Assembly (NCBI GenBank): GCA_963699225.1
Contig: OY969423.1
Location: 2,032,740 to 2,096,739 of the forward strand
Direction: 5' to 3'
From: an uncultured Solirubrobacterales bacterium
GTDB lineage: Bacteria; Actinomycetota; Thermoleophilia; Solirubrobacterales; 70-9
DNA length: 64,000 nt
The notes beneath the pieces are model-generated. The model saw only the letters and a program-made list of their open reading frames with translations, was not told the DNA's origin and searched no databases. The position numbers and the translations under genes were made by a program. Below are positions 2,987 through 54,254 of this stretch, one piece after another; within the stretch, counting starts at the first letter, position 1, and every line of letters begins with the position of its first letter.

Positions 2987-4189
2987 ATGAGCGGCGCCTT
3001 CACGAACAACAAAGCGGGCAGGGCCGGGCAGTTCACGCCCGTGCCTTCTGAGTCTGGCGCCTACTCGACGTTCTCGCCGAAGCCCCTTCCACCAGATCCT
3101 CCGCTTGCCATCGATGCGGAGATGCAACGCCTGCTGGATCGGGCGAATCAGGCCTTGGGTCGACTCGACGGCATCACCCTCCTTCTGCCCGACGCTGATC
3201 AGTTCCTCTACAGCTACATCCGCAAGGAGGCGGTGCTTTCCTCGCAGATCGAGGGCACCCAGTCCTCTCTCTCGGATCTGCTCCTCTTTGAGCACGATGT
3301 TGCGCCGGGTGTCCCGGAAGAGGACGTGCGCGAGACCACCAATTACCTCGCCGCGCTCAACCTGGGCCTAAGAACCATGGAGGAGGGCCTTCCTCTCAGT
3401 TTGCGCCTCCTGAAGCAGATTCATGGCGAGCTCTTGCGCGGCACTCGCGGCGGCGCGACTGGCCCGGGCGAGTTCCGTCGAATTCAAAACTGGCTCGGCG
3501 GATCCGAGCCCACGGCGGCTCGCTACGTCCCTCCACCCCCAAACGAGGTGCCGTCCGCCATGGCCGACCTCGAGAAGTTTCTGCACGGCGAGCCCGTGGC
3601 CATGCCCATCCTGATTAGAGCCGCGCTGGCCCACGCCCAGTTCGAGACGATCCACCCATTCCTCGATGGCAACGGTCGACTAGGCCGACTCCTTGTGACG
3701 CTCCTGCTCTGCAGCGAGACCGCTGATGGCGAAGCCCGCGTCCTCTCGCGGCCTCTGCTCTATCTGAGCCTTCACCTGAAGAGCCACCGCGACACCTATT
3801 ACGAACGGCTTCAGGCGATCCGGACCGACGGCGATTGGGAGGGCTGGCTCCGCTTCTTCCTGGAGGGAGTGATCTCAGTCGCCGACCTTGCGAGCGAAAC
3901 CACCAAGCGGATCGTCGAGCTGATCGAGCGAGACAGGAAGCGGATCAGCACCCTCGGCCGCGCGATGGGCTCAGCCCTGCTCGTCTTTGACCACGCTGTC
4001 AGAGAGGTCGTCCTACGAATCCCCGAAACCGCCGAGCAGCTGCCGGTCTCCGAACCGACAGTCGCCACGGCCATCAGCCAACTAGAGCGAATCGGCATCC
4101 TCCGCGAGCTCACCGGCCGCCCCCGCAACAAGATCTTCGCCTACGACGAGTACCTGAAGATCTTGAGCGAGGGGACGGAGCCGCTGTAG
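2987..4189 (+). CDS. Fic family protein (AMPylase-type fold with N-terminal inhibitory helix and C-terminal wHTH-like tail)
   Basis: Fic motif HPFLDGNGRLGRLL (HPFx[DE]GNGR). An inhibitory-helix-like SSQIEG ([ST]xxxE[GN]) lies upstream. 400 aa, with visibly lower GC3 than the core genes. Confidence 0.9.
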   Translation: MSGAFTNNKAGRAGQFTPVPSESGAYSTFSPKPLPPDPPLAIDAEMQRLLDRANQALGRLDGITLLLPDADQFLYSYIRKEAVLSSQIEGTQSSLSDLLLFEHDVAPGVPEEDVRETTNYLAALNLGLRTMEEGLPLSLRLLKQIHGELLRGTRGGATGPGEFRRIQNWLGGSEPTAARYVPPPPNEVPSAMADLEKFLHGEPVAMPILIRAALAHAQFETIHPFLDGNGRLGRLLVTLLLCSETADGEARVLSRPLLYLSLHLKSHRDTYYERLQAIRTDGDWEGWLRFFLEGVISVADLASETTKRIVELIERDRKRISTLGRAMGSALLVFDHAVREVVLRIPETAEQLPVSEPTVATAISQLERIGILRELTGRPRNKIFAYDEYLKILSEGTEPL

Positions 4190-4315
4190 GGCACTGCGCC
4201 GTCGGTGCCGGTAGGCCACTGCGTGTCACGGAAACAAATAGTTCCGAAACAGGATTAGGATCGTCCCTTAACGCTCGGCGGGGAAGCAACCGAGTTAATG
4301 CGAGAGGGAGATCAG

Positions 4316-10259: not shown

Positions 10260-10332
10260 TGGAGCTAGGCGGATTCGAACCGCCGACCTCCTGGGTGCGA
10301 TCCAGGCGCTCTGCCAGCTGAGCTATAGCCCC
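10260..10332 (-). tRNA. tRNA-Ala (anticodon CGC)
   Basis: The reverse complement is GGGGCTATAGCTCAGCTGGCAGAGCGCCTGGATCGCACCCAGGAGGTCGGCGGTTCGAATCCGCCTAGCTCCA. It folds as a cloverleaf with a G3:U70 pair and anticodon loop AUCGCAC. CCA is not encoded. Confidence 0.92.
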
Positions 10333-11432: not shown

Positions 11433-11505
11433 GGGGCCATAGCTCAGCTGGCAGAGCGCCGCCTTTGCAAGGCGGAGGTCGCCGGTTCGATCCCGGCTGG
11501 CTCCA
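11433..11505 (+). tRNA. tRNA-Ala (anticodon TGC)
   Basis: GGGGCCATAGCTCAGCTGGCAGAGCGCCGCCTTTGCAAGGCGGAGGTCGCCGGTTCGATCCCGGCTGGCTCCA. Cloverleaf fold, G3:U70 pair, anticodon loop UUUGCAA. Confidence 0.92.
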
Positions 11506-17233: not shown

Positions 17234-17872
17234 ATGAAGAAGCTCGCTCCTGCGATTCTCGCTGCCCTGGCCCTGCTCGTCGCGCTCTTGGCCACCGGCC
17301 CCGGCGCGACGGCCGCGCCGACGAGCTGCCCCAGCTTCCGCGTCCTCCACGACGACCGCATTGGTCCCGCCGTTCTGCCAGCCGGCAGCTACACGATCAC
17401 GATCGATTCGACCTCGGGACTTGCCTGCGGAGCGGCGGCGAAACTCTTCACCCGCTTTCTCGAGGACTACGACGGGGTTCTTCCCAGGCCATGGAGAGTG
17501 AGCGCCGAAGGGAGCGGCAAGGCGTCGTTCAAGCCCGGCGACGCTGCCGGCTTCTCGGTCTCGCGCAGCAGCGGAAGTGGCGAAGGGAGCTCTTTGCTCG
17601 GTGCTCTCTGCAATGGCACCTTCACGGTCAACGCCAGCACCCGGGTCGGCCCGCTGTTCTTCCCCAAGGCCGGCTACCTGCTCTACATCCCGCCGCGATC
17701 GGGGATCAGCTGCCGCCGCGCCTCCATCCTCTTCACCCGCTTCCTCGGTGCCGGCGGCGCCTTGCCGCAACCCTGGCGAACGATTGCCCAGACGGCGACC
17801 TTCTACAAGCCGGCCAACCCGACGCGCTCGGCTTTCCGCGTTGAGCCGCTGAGCGGCGCCGGTCCCCGCTAG
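17234..17872 (+). CDS. secreted protein with an internal two-fold repeat
   Basis: MKKLAPAILAALALLVALLATGPGATAAP is a signal peptide. Repeat 1 is SCPSFRVLHDDRIGPAVLPAGSYTITIDS..CGAAAKLFTRFLEDYDGVLPRPWRV. Repeat 2 is LCNGTFTVNASTRVGPLFFPKAGYLLYIPP..SCRRASILFTRFLGAGGALPQPWRT. Confidence 0.65.
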   Translation: MKKLAPAILAALALLVALLATGPGATAAPTSCPSFRVLHDDRIGPAVLPAGSYTITIDSTSGLACGAAAKLFTRFLEDYDGVLPRPWRVSAEGSGKASFKPGDAAGFSVSRSSGSGEGSSLLGALCNGTFTVNASTRVGPLFFPKAGYLLYIPPRSGISCRRASILFTRFLGAGGALPQPWRTIAQTATFYKPANPTRSAFRVEPLSGAGPR

Positions 17873-19182
17873 AGCGCCAGCGAGAGCGGCTCTTCGAGCA
17901 GCGAGCGCACGCGGGCGAGGAATTCGGCGGCGGGGGCGCCGTAGAGGATGCGGTGGTCGCAGGCGAGGTTGACCCGCATCAGGTGCGCGGTGGTGGTCTG
18001 GCCGTCGCGAACGACGGGGCGCTCGCTGATCGCGCCGACGGCGAGGATTGCCGCCTGCGGAGGGTTGATCACGGCGGCGAAGCTGTCGATGCCGAACATC
18101 CCCAGGTTGGAGACGGTGAAGGTCGCCCCCGAGAGCTCCGGCGGCGTGATCTGCCCGTCCCGCACCCGCTGTGCCAACGCCCGCGAATCGCCGGCGATCT
18201 GCCGCAGGTTCTTCTGGTCGGCATCGAAGATCGTCGGCACCACGAGCGCATCCCGAGCCGCCACCGCCACCCCGATGTTCACCCGCGAATAGAGCTCGAA
18301 GCGCCCATCCCGATAAGCCCCATTGGCCCGAGGATGATCCCGCAGCGCCAACGCACAAGCCTTGACCACCATGTCGTTGAACGAAGGAACGACGTCGCCT
18401 TCTTTGGCTCCGGCTTTGATTTGGGACCGAGCCGCAACCAACCGACTCATATCGATCTCTGCCTCCAAATAGAAGTGCGGCGCCGTCGCCTTCGACTCCG
18501 ACATCCGCCTGGCGACCGTCGACTGCAGCTTCGACGGGTCTTCGTAGCTGACGGTCCCCTTGGCTGTTTCGGGAGCAGGAGCTGCTGGTGCGGAAGTGCT
18601 GGCTGGGGACGGAGCGGTCGCAGGTTCAAATCCTGTCTCCCCGGTAGGTGTGCCACCAGCTTTCTCGACATCGGCCTTGACGATCCGACCACCTGGCCCG
18701 GAGCCCTGAAGCTGTGCCAAGTCGAGACCCTTCTCCTTGGCAATCCGTCGAGCCACCGGTGACGCCTTCGGGCGCTCGCCGCCTCCGTTGGAAGCCGGTG
18801 GTGCATTGATCGCAGCTTCCGCGGGTGGCGCCGTAGGGGGTACCGCCCCTGAGGAAGCTTTAGCTACCGGAGGGGGCGGTGGGTCCCCTGCGGCGACAGG
18901 ACCCGCGGCAGTGCGGTCGGTCCCTCCACCGTCCCGATCGGACGCATCTGCATCCCCGACTGTCGCAATGGGGGTTCCGATCGCAACGGTCTCACCCTCC
19001 CGGACCAGAATCTCGCTAAGCGTCCCCGCCACGTCGCTTTCGTAAGCCATATTCGCCTTGTCGGTCTCGATCTCGACGAGCTCATCTCCCACGGCCACCT
19101 CGTCCCCAACCTGCTTCAGCCACTGCAGGATCGTTCCCTCCTCCATCGAGTCGGACAGCCTCGGCATCACGATCTCGGCCAT
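17869..19182 (-). CDS. dihydrolipoamide acyltransferase (E2 of a 2-oxoacid dehydrogenase complex)
   Basis: N-terminal lipoyl domain (VEIETDKANMAYE). E3-binding segment (ASPVARRIAKEKGLDL). Catalytic domain with the DHRILYG motif. Confidence 0.92.
   Translation of the reverse strand: MAEIVMPRLSDSMEEGTILQWLKQVGDEVAVGDELVEIETDKANMAYESDVAGTLSEILVREGETVAIGTPIATVGDADASDRDGGGTDRTAAGPVAAGDPPPPPVAKASSGAVPPTAPPAEAAINAPPASNGGGERPKASPVARRIAKEKGLDLAQLQGSGPGGRIVKADVEKAGGTPTGETGFEPATAPSPASTSAPAAPAPETAKGTVSYEDPSKLQSTVARRMSESKATAPHFYLEAEIDMSRLVAARSQIKAGAKEGDVVPSFNDMVVKACALALRDHPRANGAYRDGRFELYSRVNIGVAVAARDALVVPTIFDADQKNLRQIAGDSRALAQRVRDGQITPPELSGATFTVSNLGMFGIDSFAAVINPPQAAILAVGAISERPVVRDGQTTTAHLMRVNLACDHRILYGAPAAEFLARVRSLLEEPLSLAL
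18819..18908 (-). repeat. family-2 90-nt imperfect palindromic repeat, translated in frame within the E2 linker
   Basis: 81/90 nt identical to 54119-54208 (hand alignment). Terminal inverted repeat CCGCGGGT...ACCCGCGG. Encodes [29 protein letters not shown]. Confidence 0.8.
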
Positions 19183-23899: not shown

Positions 23900-24673
23900 T
23901 CAGGCACCGGGCGCCTCCTCGCCGAGGGGGGCGAAGGCGGCGCGCAGCGCTTCGGCGGCAGCCGCGGGATCGGTGGCGTCGCGGACCGCGCGCACGACAC
24001 AGAGCCGCCGCGCCCCGGCCTCGACCACCTGGGAGACGTTCGAGGCGTCGATGCCGCCGATCGCGAAGAACGGGTGGGGAGCGTTGGCGGCGGCGTGGGA
24101 GATCAGCTCCAGCCCCACCGCGGGTCGGCCCTGCTTCGTCGGCGTCTCCCAGATCGGCCCCACGCTGATGTAGTCCGGTGACGCGCCTGACCGGCGCATA
24201 TCTGCGTCCTCGGTCGCTTGCGTGCGGAGCACGCCGCGCTCCCTGTGTCCTTGATCTGCTTGGTCAGGCGCGTCACCGGAAGCCGCAATTTGCTCTTTTG
24301 AATGCGTGGATAGACCGACTATGGCGTCGGGGCCAAGGAGCGCTCGTGCTTCAGCGACGGTCGTGTCGTCCTGTCCCAAATGGACCCCGTCGGCGTCGCA
24401 GGCGCGCGCCAGGTCGGGGTCGTCGTTGACGATGAAGAGGGCGCTGTTGTTGTCGCAGAGGCGGCGGAAGGTCTGCGCGGCGAGCTCGATCTCGCGCCGT
24501 GGCAAAGACTTCTCGCGCAGCTGCACGATGTCGACACCGCCGCGCAAAGCCGCCGCCAGTAGCGGCTCGGGATCCTCGCCGCGGGGGCGCGCCTCGCAAC
24601 AGAGATAGAGCCGCGCCGTGCGCAGCCGCTCGCGTCGCAGCGGTCCCTCGGCCTCGGGTGGTGCCAGGCTCAT
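23900..24673 (-). CDS. thiE: thiamine-phosphate synthase carrying an in-frame ~29-aa repeat-derived insert
   Basis: ATG 24673. LYLCCEARP...GGVDIVQLREK...GVHLGQDD...IVGLSTHS...PDYISVGPIWETPTKQ...FFAIGGI are ThiE motifs. The insert is encoded by 24174-24280. Confidence 0.85.
   Translation of the reverse strand: MSLAPPEAEGPLRRERLRTARLYLCCEARPRGEDPEPLLAAALRGGVDIVQLREKSLPRREIELAAQTFRRLCDNNSALFIVNDDPDLARACDADGVHLGQDDTTVAEARALLGPDAIVGLSTHSKEQIAASGDAPDQADQGHRERGVLRTQATEDADMRRSGASPDYISVGPIWETPTKQGRPAVGLELISHAAANAPHPFFAIGGIDASNVSQVVEAGARRLCVVRAVRDATDPAAAAEALRAAFAPLGEEAPGA
24174..24280 (-). repeat. family-1 element: 69-nt conserved core (SD+ATG) closed by a perfect 19-bp inverted repeat, inside thiE
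   Basis: Arms at 24174-24192 and 24262-24280 are perfectly complementary. The core 24194-24262 is 62/69 identical to 30942-31010 (hand count). Confidence 0.85.
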
Positions 24674-24704: not shown

Positions 24705-24806
24705 CGGGTAGCATCGGAAGGGTACGGGAGCCGAAGAGGCTGAGAGGGTGGCAACGAGGCCACCGACCGTCTGAACCTGATCCGGGTAATGCCGGCGGAG
24801 GCAATG
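24705..24806 (+). promoter_or_regulatory. TPP (THI-box) riboswitch upstream of thiO
   Basis: ACGGGAGCC...GGCUGAGAGGGUGGC...ACCGUCUGAACCUGAUCCGGGUAAUGCCGGCGGAGG matches the conserved THI-element core (CUGAGA, ACCUGAUC.GG.UAAU.CC.GCG.AGG). The GGAGG at its 3' end is the thiO SD. The boundaries are approximate. Confidence 0.85.
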
Positions 24807-24807
24807 C

Positions 24808-26924
<2,117 letters not shown>

Positions 26925-26969: not shown

Positions 26970-27043
26970 GCCCCCGTAGCTCAGTTGGTTAGAGCGGCGG
27001 CCTTTTAAGCCGCGCGGCGCGGGTTCGAATCCCGCCGGGGGCA
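26970..27043 (+). tRNA. tRNA-Lys (anticodon TTT)
   Basis: GCCCCCGTAGCTCAGTTGGTTAGAGCGGCGGCCTTTTAAGCCGCGCGGCGCGGGTTCGAATCCCGCCGGGGGCA. Cloverleaf fold with anticodon loop CUUUUAA. Confidence 0.92.
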
Positions 27044-30331: not shown

Positions 30332-30947
30332 CGACTACGACCCGGCGCGGGTCGTCAGCGTCGATCCTAACCTTGCCCGCCGCGATCATGCGGATCGCCT
30401 CCGAGTAGAGCTGGTGCTCGACGGTGTGGATCGCCAGCTCGAGCGCCTCGCGGTCGCGATCGGGCGGCACGTCGACCTCGCGCTGCAGGATCGTCGGCCC
30501 GGTGTCGACGCCCTCGTCGACGAAGTGGACGGTGACGCCGGTGACGTTGGCGCCCGCCGCCAGCGCCTGTCCGATCGCGTCGAGGCCGGGGAAGGCGGGC
30601 AGCAGGGCGGGGTGGACGTTGACGACACGGTTGCGGAAGCGCCCGACGAAGGCCGGGCTGAGCAGCTGCATGTAACCGGCGAGGACGATCAGATCGGCGC
30701 CCCGCTCCTCGACCCAGTCGGCCATTGCGGCGTCGCGCTCGGCCCGATCGGCGAAGTCCTCGCGGGGGAAGAGCCCGACCGCGATCCGCGCCGCCCGGGC
30801 CCGTTCGATCGCCGGCGCCCCGGGCTTGTCGGAGCCGACCCCGACCACCTCGATCCCCTCGCGCATGTGCAGTCGGTCGAGGATCGCCTGCAGATTCGAT
30901 CCGGTCCCGCTGGCCAGGACCACCAGGCGGAATGTGGCGCTACGCAT
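30324..30947 (-). CDS. purN: phosphoribosylglycinamide formyltransferase
   Basis: ATG 30947 gives MRSATFRLVVLASGTGSNLQAILD...NVHPALLPAFPG...VHFVDEGVDTGP. The SD and ATG lie inside the family-1 repeat core. Confidence 0.9.
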   Translation of the reverse strand: MRSATFRLVVLASGTGSNLQAILDRLHMREGIEVVGVGSDKPGAPAIERARAARIAVGLFPREDFADRAERDAAMADWVEERGADLIVLAGYMQLLSPAFVGRFRNRVVNVHPALLPAFPGLDAIGQALAAGANVTGVTVHFVDEGVDTGPTILQREVDVPPDRDREALELAIHTVEHQLYSEAIRMIAAGKVRIDADDPRRVVVDD

Positions 30948-31026
30948 CTCGGCGTCCTCGGTCGCTCGCGTGCAGAGCACGCCACGCTCCCTGCGTCCTT
31001 GATCTGCTTGACCACATTCCGCCTGG
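30923..31026 (-). repeat. family-1 element copy filling the purF-purN spacer (core 30942-31010, arms 30923-30937 / 31012-31026)
   Basis: The perfect 15-bp arms, CCAGGCGGAATGTGG / CCACATTCCGCCTGG, differ in sequence from the thiE copy. The core is 62/69 identical to the thiE copy. Confidence 0.85.
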
Positions 31027-46596: not shown

Positions 46597-46878
46597 CTAG
46601 AGCGAGCCGGTCAGATCGTCGGTCGACATCGCCGCCAGCGTCTGGCTCGTCATCGTCCCTCGCGACCCCAGCTCAACCGAGACCTTCGCCATCACCTTCT
46701 CGTCAGGAGCCTCGACAATCGTGACGAAGTCGTACTGCCCCAACGTCGCGTACTGGGCCACCACCTTCGCCCCAATCTGCTCAACCTCTTTGTTGACCTC
46801 GGCAACCCGACCTGGGTTGTTCTTCAGGGTCCTAACTCCCTCGGCAGTGAGGTTCGTAAGCATCACAAAGGTAGGCAT
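46597..46878 (-). CDS. GYD domain-containing protein
   Basis: MPTFVMLTNLTAEG...ATLGQYDFVTIVEAPDE is typical of the GYD family. 93 aa. Confidence 0.8.
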   Translation of the reverse strand: MPTFVMLTNLTAEGVRTLKNNPGRVAEVNKEVEQIGAKVVAQYATLGQYDFVTIVEAPDEKVMAKVSVELGSRGTMTSQTLAAMSTDDLTGSL

Positions 46879-46926: not shown

Positions 46927-46992
46927 GGAGCGTCGGGGGTCCCTCCCCAGGAACTCCCGCGAAGCGGCCTGGGGAGGGACCCCCGACGCTCC
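46927..46992. repeat. perfect 23-bp inverted repeat with a 20-nt loop
   Basis: GGAGCGTCGGGGGTCCCTCCCCA (46927-46949) and TGGGGAGGGACCCCCGACGCTCC (46970-46992), between the hydrolase stop and the GYD start. Confidence 0.7.
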
Positions 46993-47011: not shown

Positions 47012-48616
47012 TCAGTACCCAGCCGGGTGGCGGACGACGAAGCCTTCGGGGTAAGGGGGCTCAGGATGCCAACGTGGGCCAGTGCCCTGAGCATCTCCGA
47101 CGGTGTCCCAGCGGAGGCCGGCAATCTCGGCGTAAGCGTGAGTGGCGCTGGCGTAGATGGTGATCCAGCGGCCGGGGCCGGGTTCGCCGTAGCTCTCGAG
47201 TGAGCCGGAGGTGAGCGGTGTGTCGAGCAGACCGGCGCCGTAGAGGGCAAAGCTGACCGCGCCCGAGCAGTCGTATCCGGAGGCGTACCAGCTGCCGTGC
47301 CCGCCGCCCCAGATGTAGGGGGTGGTGGCGATCGAGTTGGCGGCGGAGATCGCCGCCTTGACCGCCGCCGGCGCGTCTTCGGGGGCGCTGGCGAAGCCGT
47401 TGTCGAGCACCGCGCTCGGGCCCGGAGTTTCGAAGCCCGAGGCGAGCGGGGCGACGCGCCAGTCGACGTAGCTGGTCTTGCAGTGGCCTTCGAGGGCTTC
47501 GGCGTCGGCGAGCACCGCCTGCACGTACCAAGCGGCCTGATTGTGGGCGAAGATCCCGGCGCGGAGGCTGCCTTTCGACCAGATCAACCGTGCCAATGTC
47601 GCCGCCGAGTCGGCCGGATCAGCACGGTGGATGTGGCCGTCTTCGTCGCCGTCGACCGCGTACTTGTTCCACTCACTCGGTTCGAGTCCGAGCGGCCCGC
47701 GTTCGCGCATCTGCTTGGCGCCCATGCTGCGGCCGAAGTTCGACTCGAGCCTGGCGACCGCGGCCAGTGCCCACACCCCGCGTTGCCCCAGTTCGTAGCG
47801 AGCCGCCGCGTCCTCGAAGGCGGCGAGGTAGTCGGCGGGGATCCGATCCTGCCAGGCCGGAGCCGGTTGGCAGGCAAGCACTGGCATTTGCGGAGTGAGA
47901 GCGAAGCCGCCGCCGGTGCCGCCGCCGAGCGAGCCGTAACAACTGGCGTTGGCCAGCACCTCGGCCACGTACCAGTCGGCGTGGTTGTAGGAGAAGATCG
48001 CGTTGTACGTGTCGGTCGGCATGCCCGAGGCGTTGAGGTAGCTCGCCGCGGCGAAGATCGCGTCTTCGGGGTCGTAGGGATCGCGCACGCCGTCGCCATT
48101 GGCGTCGACTCCCCAGGTTTCCCAGGTCGAGGGCAGGAACTGCATCCAGCCAATCGCGCCGGCAGACGACGGCCCCATGTTGGTGCCGAAGGCGCTCTCG
48201 ATACCGTTGATCGAGGCGAGGATCGCGGCGCCCTGGGGGCCGAGCCCGTAGGCGTTGGCGGCGCGCTGGTAGATCGGGATCAGCACCGGCGGCACTCCCG
48301 AGCTGGCGCAGCTGGAGCTGGGGATCGACGGAACTTCGAAGACTTCTGAGGGAGTCGGGGTGGGAACCGCGCCGGCGTCGGGTCCGTTTTCCGTCGCCGG
48401 TTCAGCTGCTTCCGTTTTTTCTTCGGCCGGCGCTTCCACTGCGGTGCCGCCGCTTGGCTGCGGTGCCGGCGTTGCCGCAGGCGGGGCAAGTGTTTCGTTC
48501 TGTTCGAGCGCTGGCGCGATCGTCGCTGCCGGTTCGGGTGCGGCGGCACTCGCCTGGGTGGCGCTCAGCGCCGCGCCGACCGCCGCGACGGCGAGGGTAT
48601 TGCGCAGGCGGCCCAT
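47012..48616 (-). CDS. secreted cell-wall hydrolase: two lytic-transglycosylase-like domains plus a C-terminal NlpC/P60 domain
   Basis: Signal peptide AVAAVGAALSATQASAAAP. GAIGWMQFLPSTWETWGVDANGDGVRDPYDPEDAIFAAASYL is a transglycosylase motif. YIWGGGHGSWYASGYDCSGAVSFALY has the NlpC/P60 catalytic Cys context. Confidence 0.8.
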   Translation of the reverse strand: MGRLRNTLAVAAVGAALSATQASAAAPEPAATIAPALEQNETLAPPAATPAPQPSGGTAVEAPAEEKTEAAEPATENGPDAGAVPTPTPSEVFEVPSIPSSSCASSGVPPVLIPIYQRAANAYGLGPQGAAILASINGIESAFGTNMGPSSAGAIGWMQFLPSTWETWGVDANGDGVRDPYDPEDAIFAAASYLNASGMPTDTYNAIFSYNHADWYVAEVLANASCYGSLGGGTGGGFALTPQMPVLACQPAPAWQDRIPADYLAAFEDAAARYELGQRGVWALAAVARLESNFGRSMGAKQMRERGPLGLEPSEWNKYAVDGDEDGHIHRADPADSAATLARLIWSKGSLRAGIFAHNQAAWYVQAVLADAEALEGHCKTSYVDWRVAPLASGFETPGPSAVLDNGFASAPEDAPAAVKAAISAANSIATTPYIWGGGHGSWYASGYDCSGAVSFALYGAGLLDTPLTSGSLESYGEPGPGRWITIYASATHAYAEIAGLRWDTVGDAQGTGPRWHPEPPYPEGFVVRHPAGY

Positions 48617-53621: not shown

Positions 53622-54250
53622 CTACTCGCTCACCACCACACGCGCAGGCCGGATCAACTGCTCATCGAGCCGGTACCCCTTCTGCATCACCTCGACGACC
53701 GTCCCCGACTCGACCCCAACCGAGGCCACGGTCGAGAGCGCTTCGTGCAGCGTTGGATCGAACTTCTCCCCCTCCGGATCCAAGGTCTCGACCCCGTTCC
53801 GCGTCAGCGTCTCCCGCAGCCTGCGGAAGACCAGCAGAACCCCATGAGAGAGCCCATCCTCGGAATCCCCCTCCGGATCAAGACCCGCAGCCTGAATCGC
53901 CCGCTCGAGATCATCGAGAACCACCACAACCTCCCGAATCACCTCAGCCTTCCCGCGCCCCGACGCCGCCTGAACCTCCGCCGTCATCCGCTTGCGAAAG
54001 TTCTCGAAGTCAGCCTTGGTCCGCTTAGCGAGGTCGAGATACTCGTCCCGCTCCCGCTGGGCGTCCGCCAGCAGCGCGTCGAGATCGGTCTCAACGGCGT
54101 CCGCCTGTGGCGCGTCTCCCGCGGGTGGCGGTGTAGGGGGCACCGCCCCTGAGGACGCTTTAGCGACCGGAGGGGGTGGTGGGTTCCCTGCACCGACAGG
54201 ACCCGCGGGCCGATGCTCCTCAGTCCCGGACTCATGTCCCTGATCTGGCC

Positions 54251-54254
<4 letters not shown>
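53622..54254 (-). CDS. grpE: nucleotide exchange factor GrpE carrying a repeat-derived N-terminal segment
   Basis: [20 protein letters not shown]...[11 protein letters not shown] are GrpE motifs. N-terminal residues ~17-46 are encoded by the family-2 repeat. Confidence 0.92.
54119..54208 (-). repeat. family-2 90-nt imperfect palindromic repeat, translated in frame in the GrpE N-terminus
   Basis: 81/90 nt identical to 18819-18908. Encodes [29 protein letters not shown]. Confidence 0.8.

Follow-up and report, generated by a model that had tools for sequence, protein, structure and literature searches.

The 90-nt segment shared by two housekeeping genes of the window (the whole 64-kb stretch of DNA analysed here), together with its relatives elsewhere, probably represents a family of non-autonomous palindromic DNA repeats of mobile origin, similar to Rickettsia palindromic elements (RPEs) and REP dimers, which are kept in those protein segments that tolerate them. 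The family is new, belongs to the kind first met as RPEs and, judging by the genomes in which it was found, is specific to one clade of Solirubrobacterales (Thermoleophilia, Actinomycetota).

The two window copies (see Table 1), one in the gene of an E2 acyltransferase and the other in grpE, were recomputed to be identical at 81 of 90 nt, as the original prediction had reported, and share both reading frame and orientation within minus-strand genes. Six of their nine differences are at third codon positions, and over a local alignment extended to 98 nt they are 88% identical. A 31-nt core occurs at only two places in the window (0 expected from shuffles), and a covariance-model search of the full 64 kb found no full copy beyond these two, which scored 110.5 bits (copy 1, plus strand; 32 bits on the minus strand) and 110.3 bits (copy 2). 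The arms of the imperfect palindrome named in the original prediction are real: DNA MFE on the plus strand was -37 and -35 kcal/mol for copies 1 and 2, respectively (z = -5.8 and -5.1), and for each copy none of 200 shuffles was as stable. The middle stem differs between the copies by a double compensatory change (CC/GG vs. GT/AC). With respect to the proteins, the insert occupies aa 92-122 of E2, where Pfam assigns aa 3-74 to the lipoyl, 138-173 to the E3-binding and 217-436 to the catalytic domain, and aa 16-46 of GrpE, whose Pfam domain spans aa 51-210. The AlphaFold model of E2 has pLDDT below 50 at residues 79-135 and about 30 over the insert, which is modelled without secondary structure.

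Table 1. Positions of the two repeat copies, the parts of copy 1 and the host genes in the window.
Feature	Position	Strand	Remarks
Element copy 1, 90-nt core	18819..18908	+ (better-folding strand)	Encodes E2 residues about 92-122 on the - strand
Copy 1, unpaired 5' flank (CAGCTT here)	18813..18818	+	Family consensus CYYCTC
Copy 1, outer stem, 5' arm	18818..18826	+	Partner 18901-18909; helix 1, 96.4% of cells paired, 3 double-change pairs
Copy 1, middle stem, 5' arm (includes GTAG)	18829..18840	+	Partner 18884-18895; helix 2, 99% paired
Copy 1, inner stem, 5' arm	18842..18850	+	Partner 18872-18880; helix 3, 99.4% paired, 6/9 double-change pairs
Copy 1, apical mini-hairpin, 'A-type' tip (GGAAGC TTTA GCTACC)	18853..18868	+	Pair 44-53: AU 53 / CG 43
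Copy 1, outer stem, 3' arm	18901..18909	+	Pairs with 18818-18826
Element copy 2, 90-nt core	54119..54208	+	Encodes GrpE residues about 16-46 on the - strand
Host gene 1, E2 acyltransferase of 2-oxoacid dehydrogenase	17869..19182	-	Element in the lipoyl-to-E3-binding linker
Host gene 2, grpE	53622..54254	-	dnaK and dnaJ on either side; element in the N-terminal tail ahead of the GrpE domain

Relatives contain many further copies. Among the matches listed from the GTDB species genomes and the window, to which all copy and locus counts in this study refer, nhmmer detected at least 138 matches, including at least 131 near-full copies (mean pairwise identity 88%), which come from independent short-read and long-read assemblies. 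The near-full copies represent at least 52 distinct loci in about 80 Solirubrobacterales metagenome-assembled genomes, and at least 25 loci are common to two or more species; a DNA pattern scan gave at least 120 loci, almost all labelled Solirubrobacterales. Complete chromosomes with the element include OY969915.1, OY969812.1, OY970304.1 and OY969705.1. One bin labelled Chloroflexota also carries the repeat and is probably misassigned. The core is about 90 nt long (about 100-106 nt when conserved flanks are counted), with length variants of 78 and 81 nt, and its density is low at roughly one copy per 30-60 kb (two in the 64-kb window; a second copy in 15 of 120 8-kb loci). The 90-mer and its variants were found in many unrelated genes, in intergenic DNA, in about 80 genomes and in both orientations, which rules out that the segment is a low-complexity linker of ancestral origin or the product of one ectopic conversion event. 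The encoded peptide is likewise present in unrelated proteins in both orientations; a search with the two open-frame peptides concatenated returned only proteins of at most 109 aa and provides no census, and the 13 phmmer hits of a 33-aa peptide against 1.84 billion representatives are unusable as a count, given that identical matches score only about 40 bits. Viral contigs yielded no match to the element, and the best Rfam 15 hit was mir-BART5 (21.5 bits, where the gathering score is 70), with no gathering-level match at either window copy.

Two of the six reading frames of the element are open, and both are used. Frames were called with a codon model trained on verified window genes (GC3 is only about 0.75 here). 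By locus, 17 insertions were in the P-orientation, which encodes a Pro/Ala-rich peptide, 16 in the opposite G-orientation, which encodes an unrelated Gly-rich peptide, and 19 were intergenic or unresolved. Thus 33 of the 52 loci (i.e., at least 60%) lie within ORFs, always in an open frame and across about 25 different protein families, including uS2, uS5, bS1, uL5, NusA, DnaX, FtsZ, GrpE, E2, BCCP, NuoC/D, Lhr, RecG and Maf; together with the conserved peptide, this bears out the likeness to the in-frame repeats of Rickettsia that had been proposed. Coding copies measure 90, 81 or 78 nt, and the length was a multiple of three in 102 of 107 copies at coding loci versus 15 of 24 elsewhere (Fisher p = 6e-5), with the 79- and 80-nt forms falling after one stop codon and before the start that follows (e.g., ahead of lepA and recQ, or after glnA). 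Intergenic copies are tightly packed between genes and have the same DNA consensus and hairpin as coding ones. The frame and length constraints suggest that genic copies are retained in the mRNA and translated. Removal at the RNA or protein level (by an intron, an intein or translational bypassing of the type known from T4 gene 60 and mitochondrial 'byps') was rejected, since coding copies are stop-free and of length 3n while intergenic copies are not, a constraint that would be needless were the insert skipped. The original prediction also held that the repeat is tolerated only in disordered segments, and this is true of most hosts rather than all: Pfam mapping of 20 hosts placed 14 insertions in tails or linkers and 6 inside domain envelopes (the within-domain sites being in NuoC, Lhr at two sites, the RecG wedge, Maf and RibD_C).

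Pairing in the consensus structure is maintained in 98.6% of 3360 cells, and 13 of 35 pairs show double changes (270 cells); pairs 19-81 and 20-80 of helix 2, for instance, covary through CG, GC, UA and UG. None of 500 shuffles matched this, and slid registers pair at only about 45%. One and the same element strand was the more stable in 130 of 131 copies regardless of the direction of the host gene, and on this favoured strand we counted 229 G·T pairs versus 5 A·C pairs. Compensatory changes alter the peptide and retain the base pairs. The conserved entity is most likely a nucleic-acid hairpin on one element strand, not the peptide. A structure acting in the host mRNA (pausing, frameshift or terminator) was considered and rejected, as the same element strand pairs better in both gene orientations and no T-run lies 3' of the hairpin. 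The unpaired 5' motif CYYCTC (C at -3 in 40, T at -2 in 35 and C at -1 in 37 of the 52 loci) is the same DNA in coding contexts of both orientations and in intergenic ones; its conservation at independent loci indicates that it belongs to the element or else serves as a target motif. Within the middle stem, columns 21-24 read GTAG in 72 of 96 copies and GCAG in 22, and are base-paired. Variants of the form ACCATGTCT...AGACATGGT keep the pairs between the arms while destroying the possible GGGG/CCCC pairing within an arm. Element orientation showed no significant relation to local GC skew (21 vs. 31 loci, p = 0.21), and hence gives no support for a lagging-strand-template mechanism; the intergenic loci alone split 4 vs. 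15, a weak signal.

Comparison of E2 and GrpE orthologues, among others, showed that many insertions are orthologous across species and that almost all well-sampled loci are old. A keyword screen of 120 E2 orthologues recovered an intact linker-1 copy in 103, with at least two of those missed (P0072 and P0102) carrying a copy that has a one-residue change at the screened motif; 19 orthologues have a second copy in linker 2 in the opposite orientation, and about a dozen contain a decayed or internally deleted relic. For the GrpE copy, orthologous insertions are present in the same gene in at least 8 other species. Most insertions are old and vertically inherited, and none of the loci sampled held a demonstrably recent one. 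Between orthologues, third-codon identity was 0.85 in the element versus 0.62-0.67 in alignable flanks (108 pairs), a level of synonymous-position conservation at species-level divergence that a dead selfish remnant does not predict, and that a host-useful or a still-active element would fit equally. Identity was 91.2% between paralogues of the same genome, 90.3% between orthologues and 88.3% for all other pairs. The tip subtype tracks the genome and not the locus (genomes with at least two copies: 24 all-A, 6 all-B, 3 mixed; loci with at least two copies: 12 all-A, 0 all-B, 13 mixed), which is indicative of concerted evolution. Other copies survive as diverged relics or, after internal deletion, as forms of 42-54 nt, and the occurrence of such copies in otherwise normal genes implies that individual copies are dispensable.

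Presence and absence among orthologues, together with the genome-specific subtypes, point to an origin by transposition. The original prediction of a mobile or recombining element is therefore upheld as regards a dispersed hairpin family in many unrelated genes and intergenic DNA, with movement itself a likely reading of these patterns. On that reading, the element would have entered many sites of an ancestral genome and survived only in intergenic DNA or in a stop-free frame of a segment (tail, linker or surface loop) that tolerates about 30 extra residues. Genic copies would be transcribed and translated into one of two peptides depending on orientation, what is conserved would be the hairpin of one strand rather than the peptide, and long vertical inheritance would be accompanied by lineage-wide change in concert, with some copies decaying or losing their centre by deletion. 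The concerted change may be due to trans-acting machinery that recognises the single-stranded hairpin, for example REP/RAYT- or IS200/IS605-like excision and re-insertion beside the retained target motif, or might instead proceed by gene conversion between copies. Searches of about 1 Mb of sampled loci by tblastn with approximate sequences of YafM and of the IS200 and IS608 TnpA returned nothing credible and no transposase or HUH/Y1 gene, and small ORFs adjoining intergenic copies were ordinary genes. Target-site duplication was absent at the 52 loci (longest flank direct repeat 2.56 nt on average vs. 2.50 +/- 0.21 in shuffled pairings), and the sampled loci, 8-kb chunks with right-arm-biased sampling, held no longer element with its arms separated at kb distance.

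A bolder version of the mobile-origin reading, which we put forward tentatively and with some doubt, is that the hairpins are living, vertically inherited, REPIN-like replicators whose main habitat is inside essential protein-coding genes, and which a putative single-copy ssDNA-hairpin enzyme excises precisely and re-inserts beside the retained CYYCTC. Whichever subtype is current in the lineage would then move back into the same codon positions, which would jointly explain why subtype follows genome, why ancient, unrelated loci of one genome hold identical copies, and why conservation exceeds that of host synonymous sites.

Persistence could also have a different cause, namely that the hairpin, whether in ssDNA, cruciform or RNA form, has been co-opted as a host-useful nucleic-acid signal that a host factor binds or processes (e.g., in chromosome organisation or in replication and repair), which purifying selection maintains and which is located in genes only incidentally. 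We think this rather unlikely, although it overlaps with the mobile-origin reading (a mobile element later domesticated) and differs from it only in why copies persist. It would accommodate the third-codon conservation, the fact that, over about 80 species, 46 of 102 columns are invariant and a further 25 nearly so, the strand-specific pairing independent of host transcription and the enrichment of essential, highly expressed genes among hosts; the vertical persistence of REPIN/RAYT systems has, in part of the literature on them, been argued on similar grounds. It fits poorly with the decayed or internally deleted copies at several loci in otherwise normal genes, the low density and the lack of a match to an Rfam family, and no candidate binding factor was identified.

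The peptide itself could be the selected unit, i.e., a Pro/Ala-rich 30-mer recombined between proteins as a flexible linker or interaction motif, with the palindrome as a by-product. The P-orientation peptide does occupy classical Ala/Pro linker positions of E2, BCCP and DnaX, and the third-position differences between the window copies agree with such selection. However, the opposite orientation is used equally by locus and encodes an unrelated peptide, and the DNA consensus and hairpin are retained in intergenic copies; these data contradict the reading, as do compensatory changes that spare the base pairs at the expense of the peptide and a flank motif that is the same DNA in both orientations, and we consider it very improbable. 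An accident confined to two copies, whether one ectopic conversion event involving E2 and grpE, low-complexity linkers that resemble each other by chance or a chimeric assembly, matches the count within the window but neither the number and independent assembly of copies elsewhere, nor the 0 matches expected by chance, nor the orthologous copies that both the GrpE and E2 insertions have in other species; its probability is negligible.

To our knowledge, RPEs are essentially the one textbook example of in-frame palindromic repeats, alongside scattered intragenic REPs. RPEs occur in reduced intracellular genomes, and weak selection is the usual explanation for them. The present family resides in free-living, small-genome, uncultured soil bacteria, inside ribosomal proteins, NusA, FtsZ, DnaX, GrpE, and respiratory and helicase genes of dozens of species. 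At many orthologous sites intact, subtype-switched, deleted and decayed states are found side by side, which makes it testable whether the repeat persists because it is harmless, still copying or used by the host. A 'signature insertion' of 26-30 residues in unrelated proteins may also be a source of confusion in homology searches, in analyses of linkers and in taxonomy based on indel markers, and the repeat is a clean marker of this uncultured clade.

Among known systems, TIR-type MITEs are likewise small, non-autonomous and bounded by inverted repeats, with occasional in-frame ORF fusion (PMC10969869; for intragenic copies of enterobacterial RU/ERIC, PMC2759123). They consist of TIRs around an unconstrained core, whereas here the whole element is one covarying hairpin, target-site duplication is absent and the sampled loci contain no related full-length IS. 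IS200/IS605 derivatives (PATEs), which move by ssDNA 'peel and paste', share the strand-specific hairpin, the lack of target duplication and a short motif on the 5' side only (PMC6006769), but carry a pair of dissimilar subterminal hairpins (LE and RE) instead of one long hairpin; in our data there was no TnpA in the sampled loci and no bias with respect to GC skew. Precise excision by IS200/IS605 logic would leave the ORF intact and the site re-usable, which would explain different subtypes at the same site.

REP dimers and REPINs mobilised by RAYT (TnpA-REP, a tyrosine HUH enzyme) resemble the family in forming a long, imperfect hairpin (70-110 nt) whose arms are conserved and show frequent compensatory changes (PMC3116915), and in G·T pairs that mark one strand, a short unpaired motif 5' of the hairpin foot, extragenic copies tight between genes (often convergent) and long vertical persistence with lineage-specific types (PMC3116915, PMC3733652, PMC6006769). 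By contrast, REPINs are essentially extragenic, as against the largely intragenic loci described above; the arms here are not two self-folding REP units, since intra-arm pairing is lost where inter-arm pairing is kept; the GT[AG]G guide lies at the 5' foot of REPINs, whereas GTAG is here buried in a stem; and no RAYT was found in the 1 Mb of sampled loci. We know of no RAYT in Solirubrobacterales.

The novelty claimed in the original prediction holds for the lineage, in that we found no literature report of in-frame palindromic repeats in Solirubrobacterales or Actinobacteria, and not for the kind of element, since REP dimers that lie within genes and encode 20-30 aa are on record from other phyla (PMC3733652). 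A close parallel is with the RPEs (Ogata et al. 2000, as summarised in PMC10969869), repeats of about 100-150 bp in AT-rich, obligate intracellular Alphaproteobacteria. In that summary they too are dispersed palindromic repeats lying in frame in unrelated, mostly housekeeping genes, with a conserved peptide kept in the product, intergenic as well as genic copies, intact and deteriorating forms and no known transposase. At the element's 74% GC, sequence homology to RPEs seems implausible. The family described here differs in inhabiting free-living, high-GC Actinomycetota, in its 90-nt length and in its nearly equal use of both orientations, and is further set apart by strand-specific pairing, by excess synonymous conservation across species and by lineage-wide replacement of the tip at orthologous sites.

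The two 90-nt segments originally predicted, one in the E2 (2-oxoacid dehydrogenase acyltransferase) linker and one in grpE, were borne out in both placement and likeness: they are identical at 81 of 90 positions and, as claimed, are read in the same frame in their hosts, both of which are minus-strand genes. A repeat finder aligned 98 nt at 88% identity, and a 31-nt core was found at these two sites and no others in the window (with no matches in 100 shuffles). Copy 1 encodes residues ~92–122 of E2 and copy 2 residues ~16–46 of GrpE, i.e., its N-terminal tail. In the AlphaFold model of the window E2, which is of moderate quality overall (mean pLDDT 56), residues 79–135 have a pLDDT of ~30 and are without secondary structure, and the lipoyl and E3-binding domains reach 70–90. 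Folded as single-stranded DNA, the + strand gives −37 kcal/mol for copy 1 and −35 kcal/mol for copy 2 (z = −5.8 and −5.1), compared with a weaker −32 and −28.4 kcal/mol for the − strand. The middle stem differs between the copies by a double compensatory change (GCGCCG/CGGCG vs. GCGGTG/CACCG), and two of the element's six frames are stop-free, namely the one used in E2 and GrpE and one on the opposite strand.

Coordinates of the features discussed (window positions, unless a fetched locus, L-number, is named)
Feature	Position	Strand	Details
Element copy 1 (E2)	18819–18908		
Element copy 2 (grpE)	54119–54208		
E2	17869–19182	−	lipoyl aa 3–74, E3-binding 138–173, catalytic 217–436
GrpE	53622–54254	−	GrpE domain aa 51–210
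E2 linker-2 motif	roughly 18585–18650		residues ~178–200
68-nt repeat, copy 1	24195–24262		closing stem 24180–24194/24263–24277
68-nt repeat, copy 2	30943–31010		closing stem 30930–30937/31012–31019
66-nt hairpin	46927–46992		
TPP riboswitch	24714–24820	+	Rfam, 59.5 bits vs. gathering score 54.3
tRNA gene	10260–10332	−	Rfam gathering scan, whole window
tRNA gene	11433–11505	+	Rfam gathering scan, whole window
tRNA gene	26970–27043	+	Rfam gathering scan, whole window
Inverted E2-type pair	L059 4627–4716; 4894–4983	−; +	
DnaX	L002 8943–10330		
Right-arm duplications	L011 ~4188–4220; L020 3470–3493; L043 4302–4325		
Divergent subfamily	L060 305–393; L028 5726–5814; L103 526–612		

Using the peptides of both open frames as protein queries, we found the motif in GrpE, E2, Maf, BCCP-like, ParA-like and DnaX-like fragments and in hypothetical proteins, with both orientations represented; these matches led to three further DNA copies on two NCBI/ENA contigs. 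We then scanned one genome per GTDB species with a degenerate 21-base pattern for the conserved right arm, which matched at least 120 loci. Among the matches listed, nearly all were labelled as Solirubrobacterales, Thermoleophilia or Actinomycetota MAGs (complete chromosomes of 2.4–3.0 Mb included), and an nhmmer profile run on the 1 Mb of listed loci gave at least 138 hits, at least 131 of them near-full copies. The listed copies include 96 of exactly 90 nt, have a mean pairwise identity of 88% (92% to the consensus) and fall into at least 52 distinct loci by flank comparison. As 25 of these 52 loci hold a copy in two to nine species and have flanks 70–90% identical, these 25 represent orthologous, old insertions; the group of the window GrpE copy spans nine species and that of the E2 copy six. 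The bin JBLMYD01, labelled ‘Chloroflexota bacterium MAG238’, carries full elements on three contigs: L046 (in NuoC), L086 (in uL5) and L094 (in Lhr). The NuoC and Lhr flanks are 75–86% identical to Solirubrobacterales loci, and the bin has probably been either misassigned or contaminated. L040 (JBLNAC01, labelled ‘Syntrophothermus sp.’) has the right arm and nothing more of the element.

Reading frames were called with a codon model trained on verified window genes. Out of 131 listed copies, 54 had coding sequence on both sides in one continuous open frame, 23 lay near a C-terminus, 21 near an N-terminus and 33 were unclassed; these calls are conservative, given that the window GrpE copy itself landed in the unclassed group. 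By locus, 17 of the 52 listed have the Pro-rich orientation (as in E2 and GrpE) and 16 the Gly-rich one (opposite strand), with 19 intergenic or without resolved context; copies without a coding call as a rule occupy the space between two genes, in many cases convergent ones. Pfam mapping of 20 host proteins placed the insert in C-terminal tails (uS5, uS2, bS1, uL5, NusA, a radical-SAM protein), N-terminal extensions (FtsZ, ParA-like ATPase, NuoD), inter-domain linkers (E2, DnaX, BCCP, PyrK-PyrD fusion), a loop of a Wzy_C membrane protein, and within domain envelopes (NuoC, RecG wedge, Maf, RibD_C and Lhr, where one site lies between helicase motifs II and III and the other in the second RecA domain). 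That the insert is translated, not skipped, is argued mainly from its length, which is a multiple of three (90, 81 or 78 nt) in 102/107 copies at coding loci vs. 15/24 elsewhere (Fisher p = 6e-5); copies outside coding loci also measure 79, 80, 88 or 89 nt. Most exceptions at coding loci come from long-read metagenome assemblies and are probably homopolymer errors, not real frameshifts. In one such assembly, DnaX appears as two called genes split around an 88-nt copy (L002).

Among the 120 closest E2 orthologues (77–96% identity), a keyword screen scored the linker-1 copy as intact in 103; it missed at least two others (P0072, P0102), whose copy differs by a single residue at the screened motif. 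About 12 of the 120 hold a diverged or internally deleted relic. A second copy, of opposite orientation, was present in linker 2 of 19 of the 120 (P0051, P0054, P0059 and others), and in these the inverted copies bracket the small E3-binding domain, one per linker. Linker 2 also shows a recurring (G)ETGFEPATA in the window E2 and in P0032, P0034, P0038 and others, preceded in some orthologues by a related unit, GAPGSEPGTA; the motif may reflect a tandem expansion or be a short in-frame repeat in its own right.

The hairpin formed by one strand of this dispersed repeat is under constraint as a nucleic acid. In a gap-free alignment of the 96 copies, tested against a structure of four helices and 35 pairs, 98.6% of cells were paired and both-sided changes occurred at 13/35 pairs (270 cells); none of 500 shuffles reached the observed pairing or double-change values, and slid controls were ~45% paired. 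Some pairs pass through four or five base-pair types (pair 33-65: GC 47, AU 19, GU 12, UA 9, CG 6). Non-Watson-Crick cells on the window-+ strand were G·T in 229 cases vs. A·C in 5, and the equivalent strand was the more stable one in 130/131 copies, whether host-sense (29/30), host-antisense (77/77) or intergenic (24/24). Because the stable strand is the same whatever the host direction, the selected structure is the element's and not that of the host mRNA. An unpaired CYYCTC directly 5' of the hairpin foot is kept at independent loci in all contexts, and a weaker GCCRRG motif lies on the 3' side.

In-frame internal deletions yield 42–54-nt mini-hairpins, one of them in a GrpE orthologue where the locus-specific GT/AC pair is still present. 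Right arms are also found alone or tandemly duplicated among the listed loci, and a fully diverged relic occupies Lhr site 2 in a genome with an intact site 1 copy. The right-arm-only partial duplications (GTCCCCTGC...GACAGGACCC) adjoin full copies, in the L011 Lhr doubling the peptide GSPAATGPAG; no left-arm counterpart was seen in the listed loci, and they may be the footprint of slippage or aberrant 3'-arm processing. Copies of a divergent 87–89-nt subfamily adjoin normal copies in inverted orientation, their middle stem being GAATGGG/CCCATTC or GATCTGG/CCAGATC for GTAGGGG/CCCCTGC, fully compensated.

The window holds other repeats and structures. Two copies of a ~68-nt repeat unrelated to the element are 91% identical in the same orientation, and their closing stems differ in sequence with complementarity kept; copy 1 has an RNA MFE of −56.9 kcal/mol (z = −3.9), no Rfam hit was obtained, and the repeat may represent either a further repeat family or a small structured RNA. 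Between two minus-strand ORFs, after a stop at 47012 and before a start at 46878, sits a 66-nt hairpin whose 25-bp stem is perfect (GGAGCGTCGGGGGTCCCTCCCCAGG...CCTGGGGAGGGACCCCCGACGCTCC; DNA MFE −43.5 kcal/mol, z = −9), with no T-run following it. Its 22-nt stem core (GCGTCGGGGGTCCCTCCCCAGG) had no exact match in 122 fetched loci, and its weak hits (23 bits) to the element's covariance model are probably due to shape alone.

The element has been carried in frame through many proteins, inherited vertically and evolving in concert. At third codon positions, orthologous copies are 0.85 identical within the element vs. 0.62–0.67 in alignable coding flanks (108 pairs). Mean identity is 91.2% between different loci of the same genome, 90.3% at the same locus across species and 88.3% in the background, and one genome has identical 90-mers at FtsZ and uS5, both anciently occupied. 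Two tip subtypes were distinguished: type A, the 90-nt form (tip GAGGAxGCTTTAGCxACCG), and type B, which retains the outer and middle stems around a different, shorter apex (CCTCCTGC-NNN-GCAGGAGG and relatives) and measures 78 or 81 nt within genes, 79 or 80 nt between them. Subtype tracks the genome, not the locus: among listed matches with at least two copies, 24 genomes were all-A, 6 all-B and 3 mixed, vs. 12, 0 and 13 loci, respectively. The B-type genomes are also mutually closest relatives by flank identity. Along one lineage the apex has thus been replaced at many separate sites that were already occupied, which implies that copies either underwent gene conversion with one another or were repeatedly excised and re-inserted. 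Gene conversion offers a plain alternative account of the concerted change; with longest invariant blocks of 12–14 nt, RecA-type conversion would be inefficient but possible.

As to mechanism, the nearest model is that of the REP/REPIN-RAYT (REPINs being REP dimers and RAYTs REP-linked HUH transposases) and IS200/IS605 systems, in which hairpins of single-stranded DNA with a short motif on the 5' side of the foot are excised precisely and the target is not duplicated (PMC3116915, PMC6006769). With such excision, neither the host ORF nor the motif would be damaged, and the site could be re-occupied by the lineage's current subtype. No mobilising enzyme was found in the ~1 Mb of sampled loci or beside intergenic copies, no autonomous partner in the sampled loci, and no replication-strand bias at the 52 listed loci (orientation vs. 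local GC skew); we therefore treat such a step as hypothetical, and on balance unlikely. More generally, the element presumably arose by transposition, and a trans-acting activity reading the single-stranded hairpin may keep its population coherent; the original reading of the repeat as a mobile or recombining element is supported overall, and the observation behind it confirmed.

Flank comparison at the 52 listed loci revealed no target-site duplications, which rules out a classical TIR-type MITE. From REPINs the element differs in both location (extragenic in REPINs) and arms (self-folding REPs in REPINs). On two further REPIN traits the picture is less clear-cut: the GTAG tag occurs in 72 of the 96 aligned copies (GCAG in 22), there base-paired within the middle stem, and no RAYT partner turned up in the ~1 Mb of sampled loci. 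No Rfam family matched it, no copy was found in viral sequences, and searches of open-access papers turned up no account of such a repeat in Solirubrobacterales, Thermoleophilia or other Actinobacteria. The element is a new family, the phenomenon itself being already known. Rickettsia palindromic elements follow the same logic (PMC10969869), and Di Nocera et al. described intragenic REP dimers encoding 20–30 aa in several bacteria, remarking on their G·T pairing (PMC3733652), a feature that the element shares along with its general likeness to them. What the present family offers is unusually clear evidence of strand-specific structural constraint together with lineage-wide concerted change at orthologous intragenic sites.
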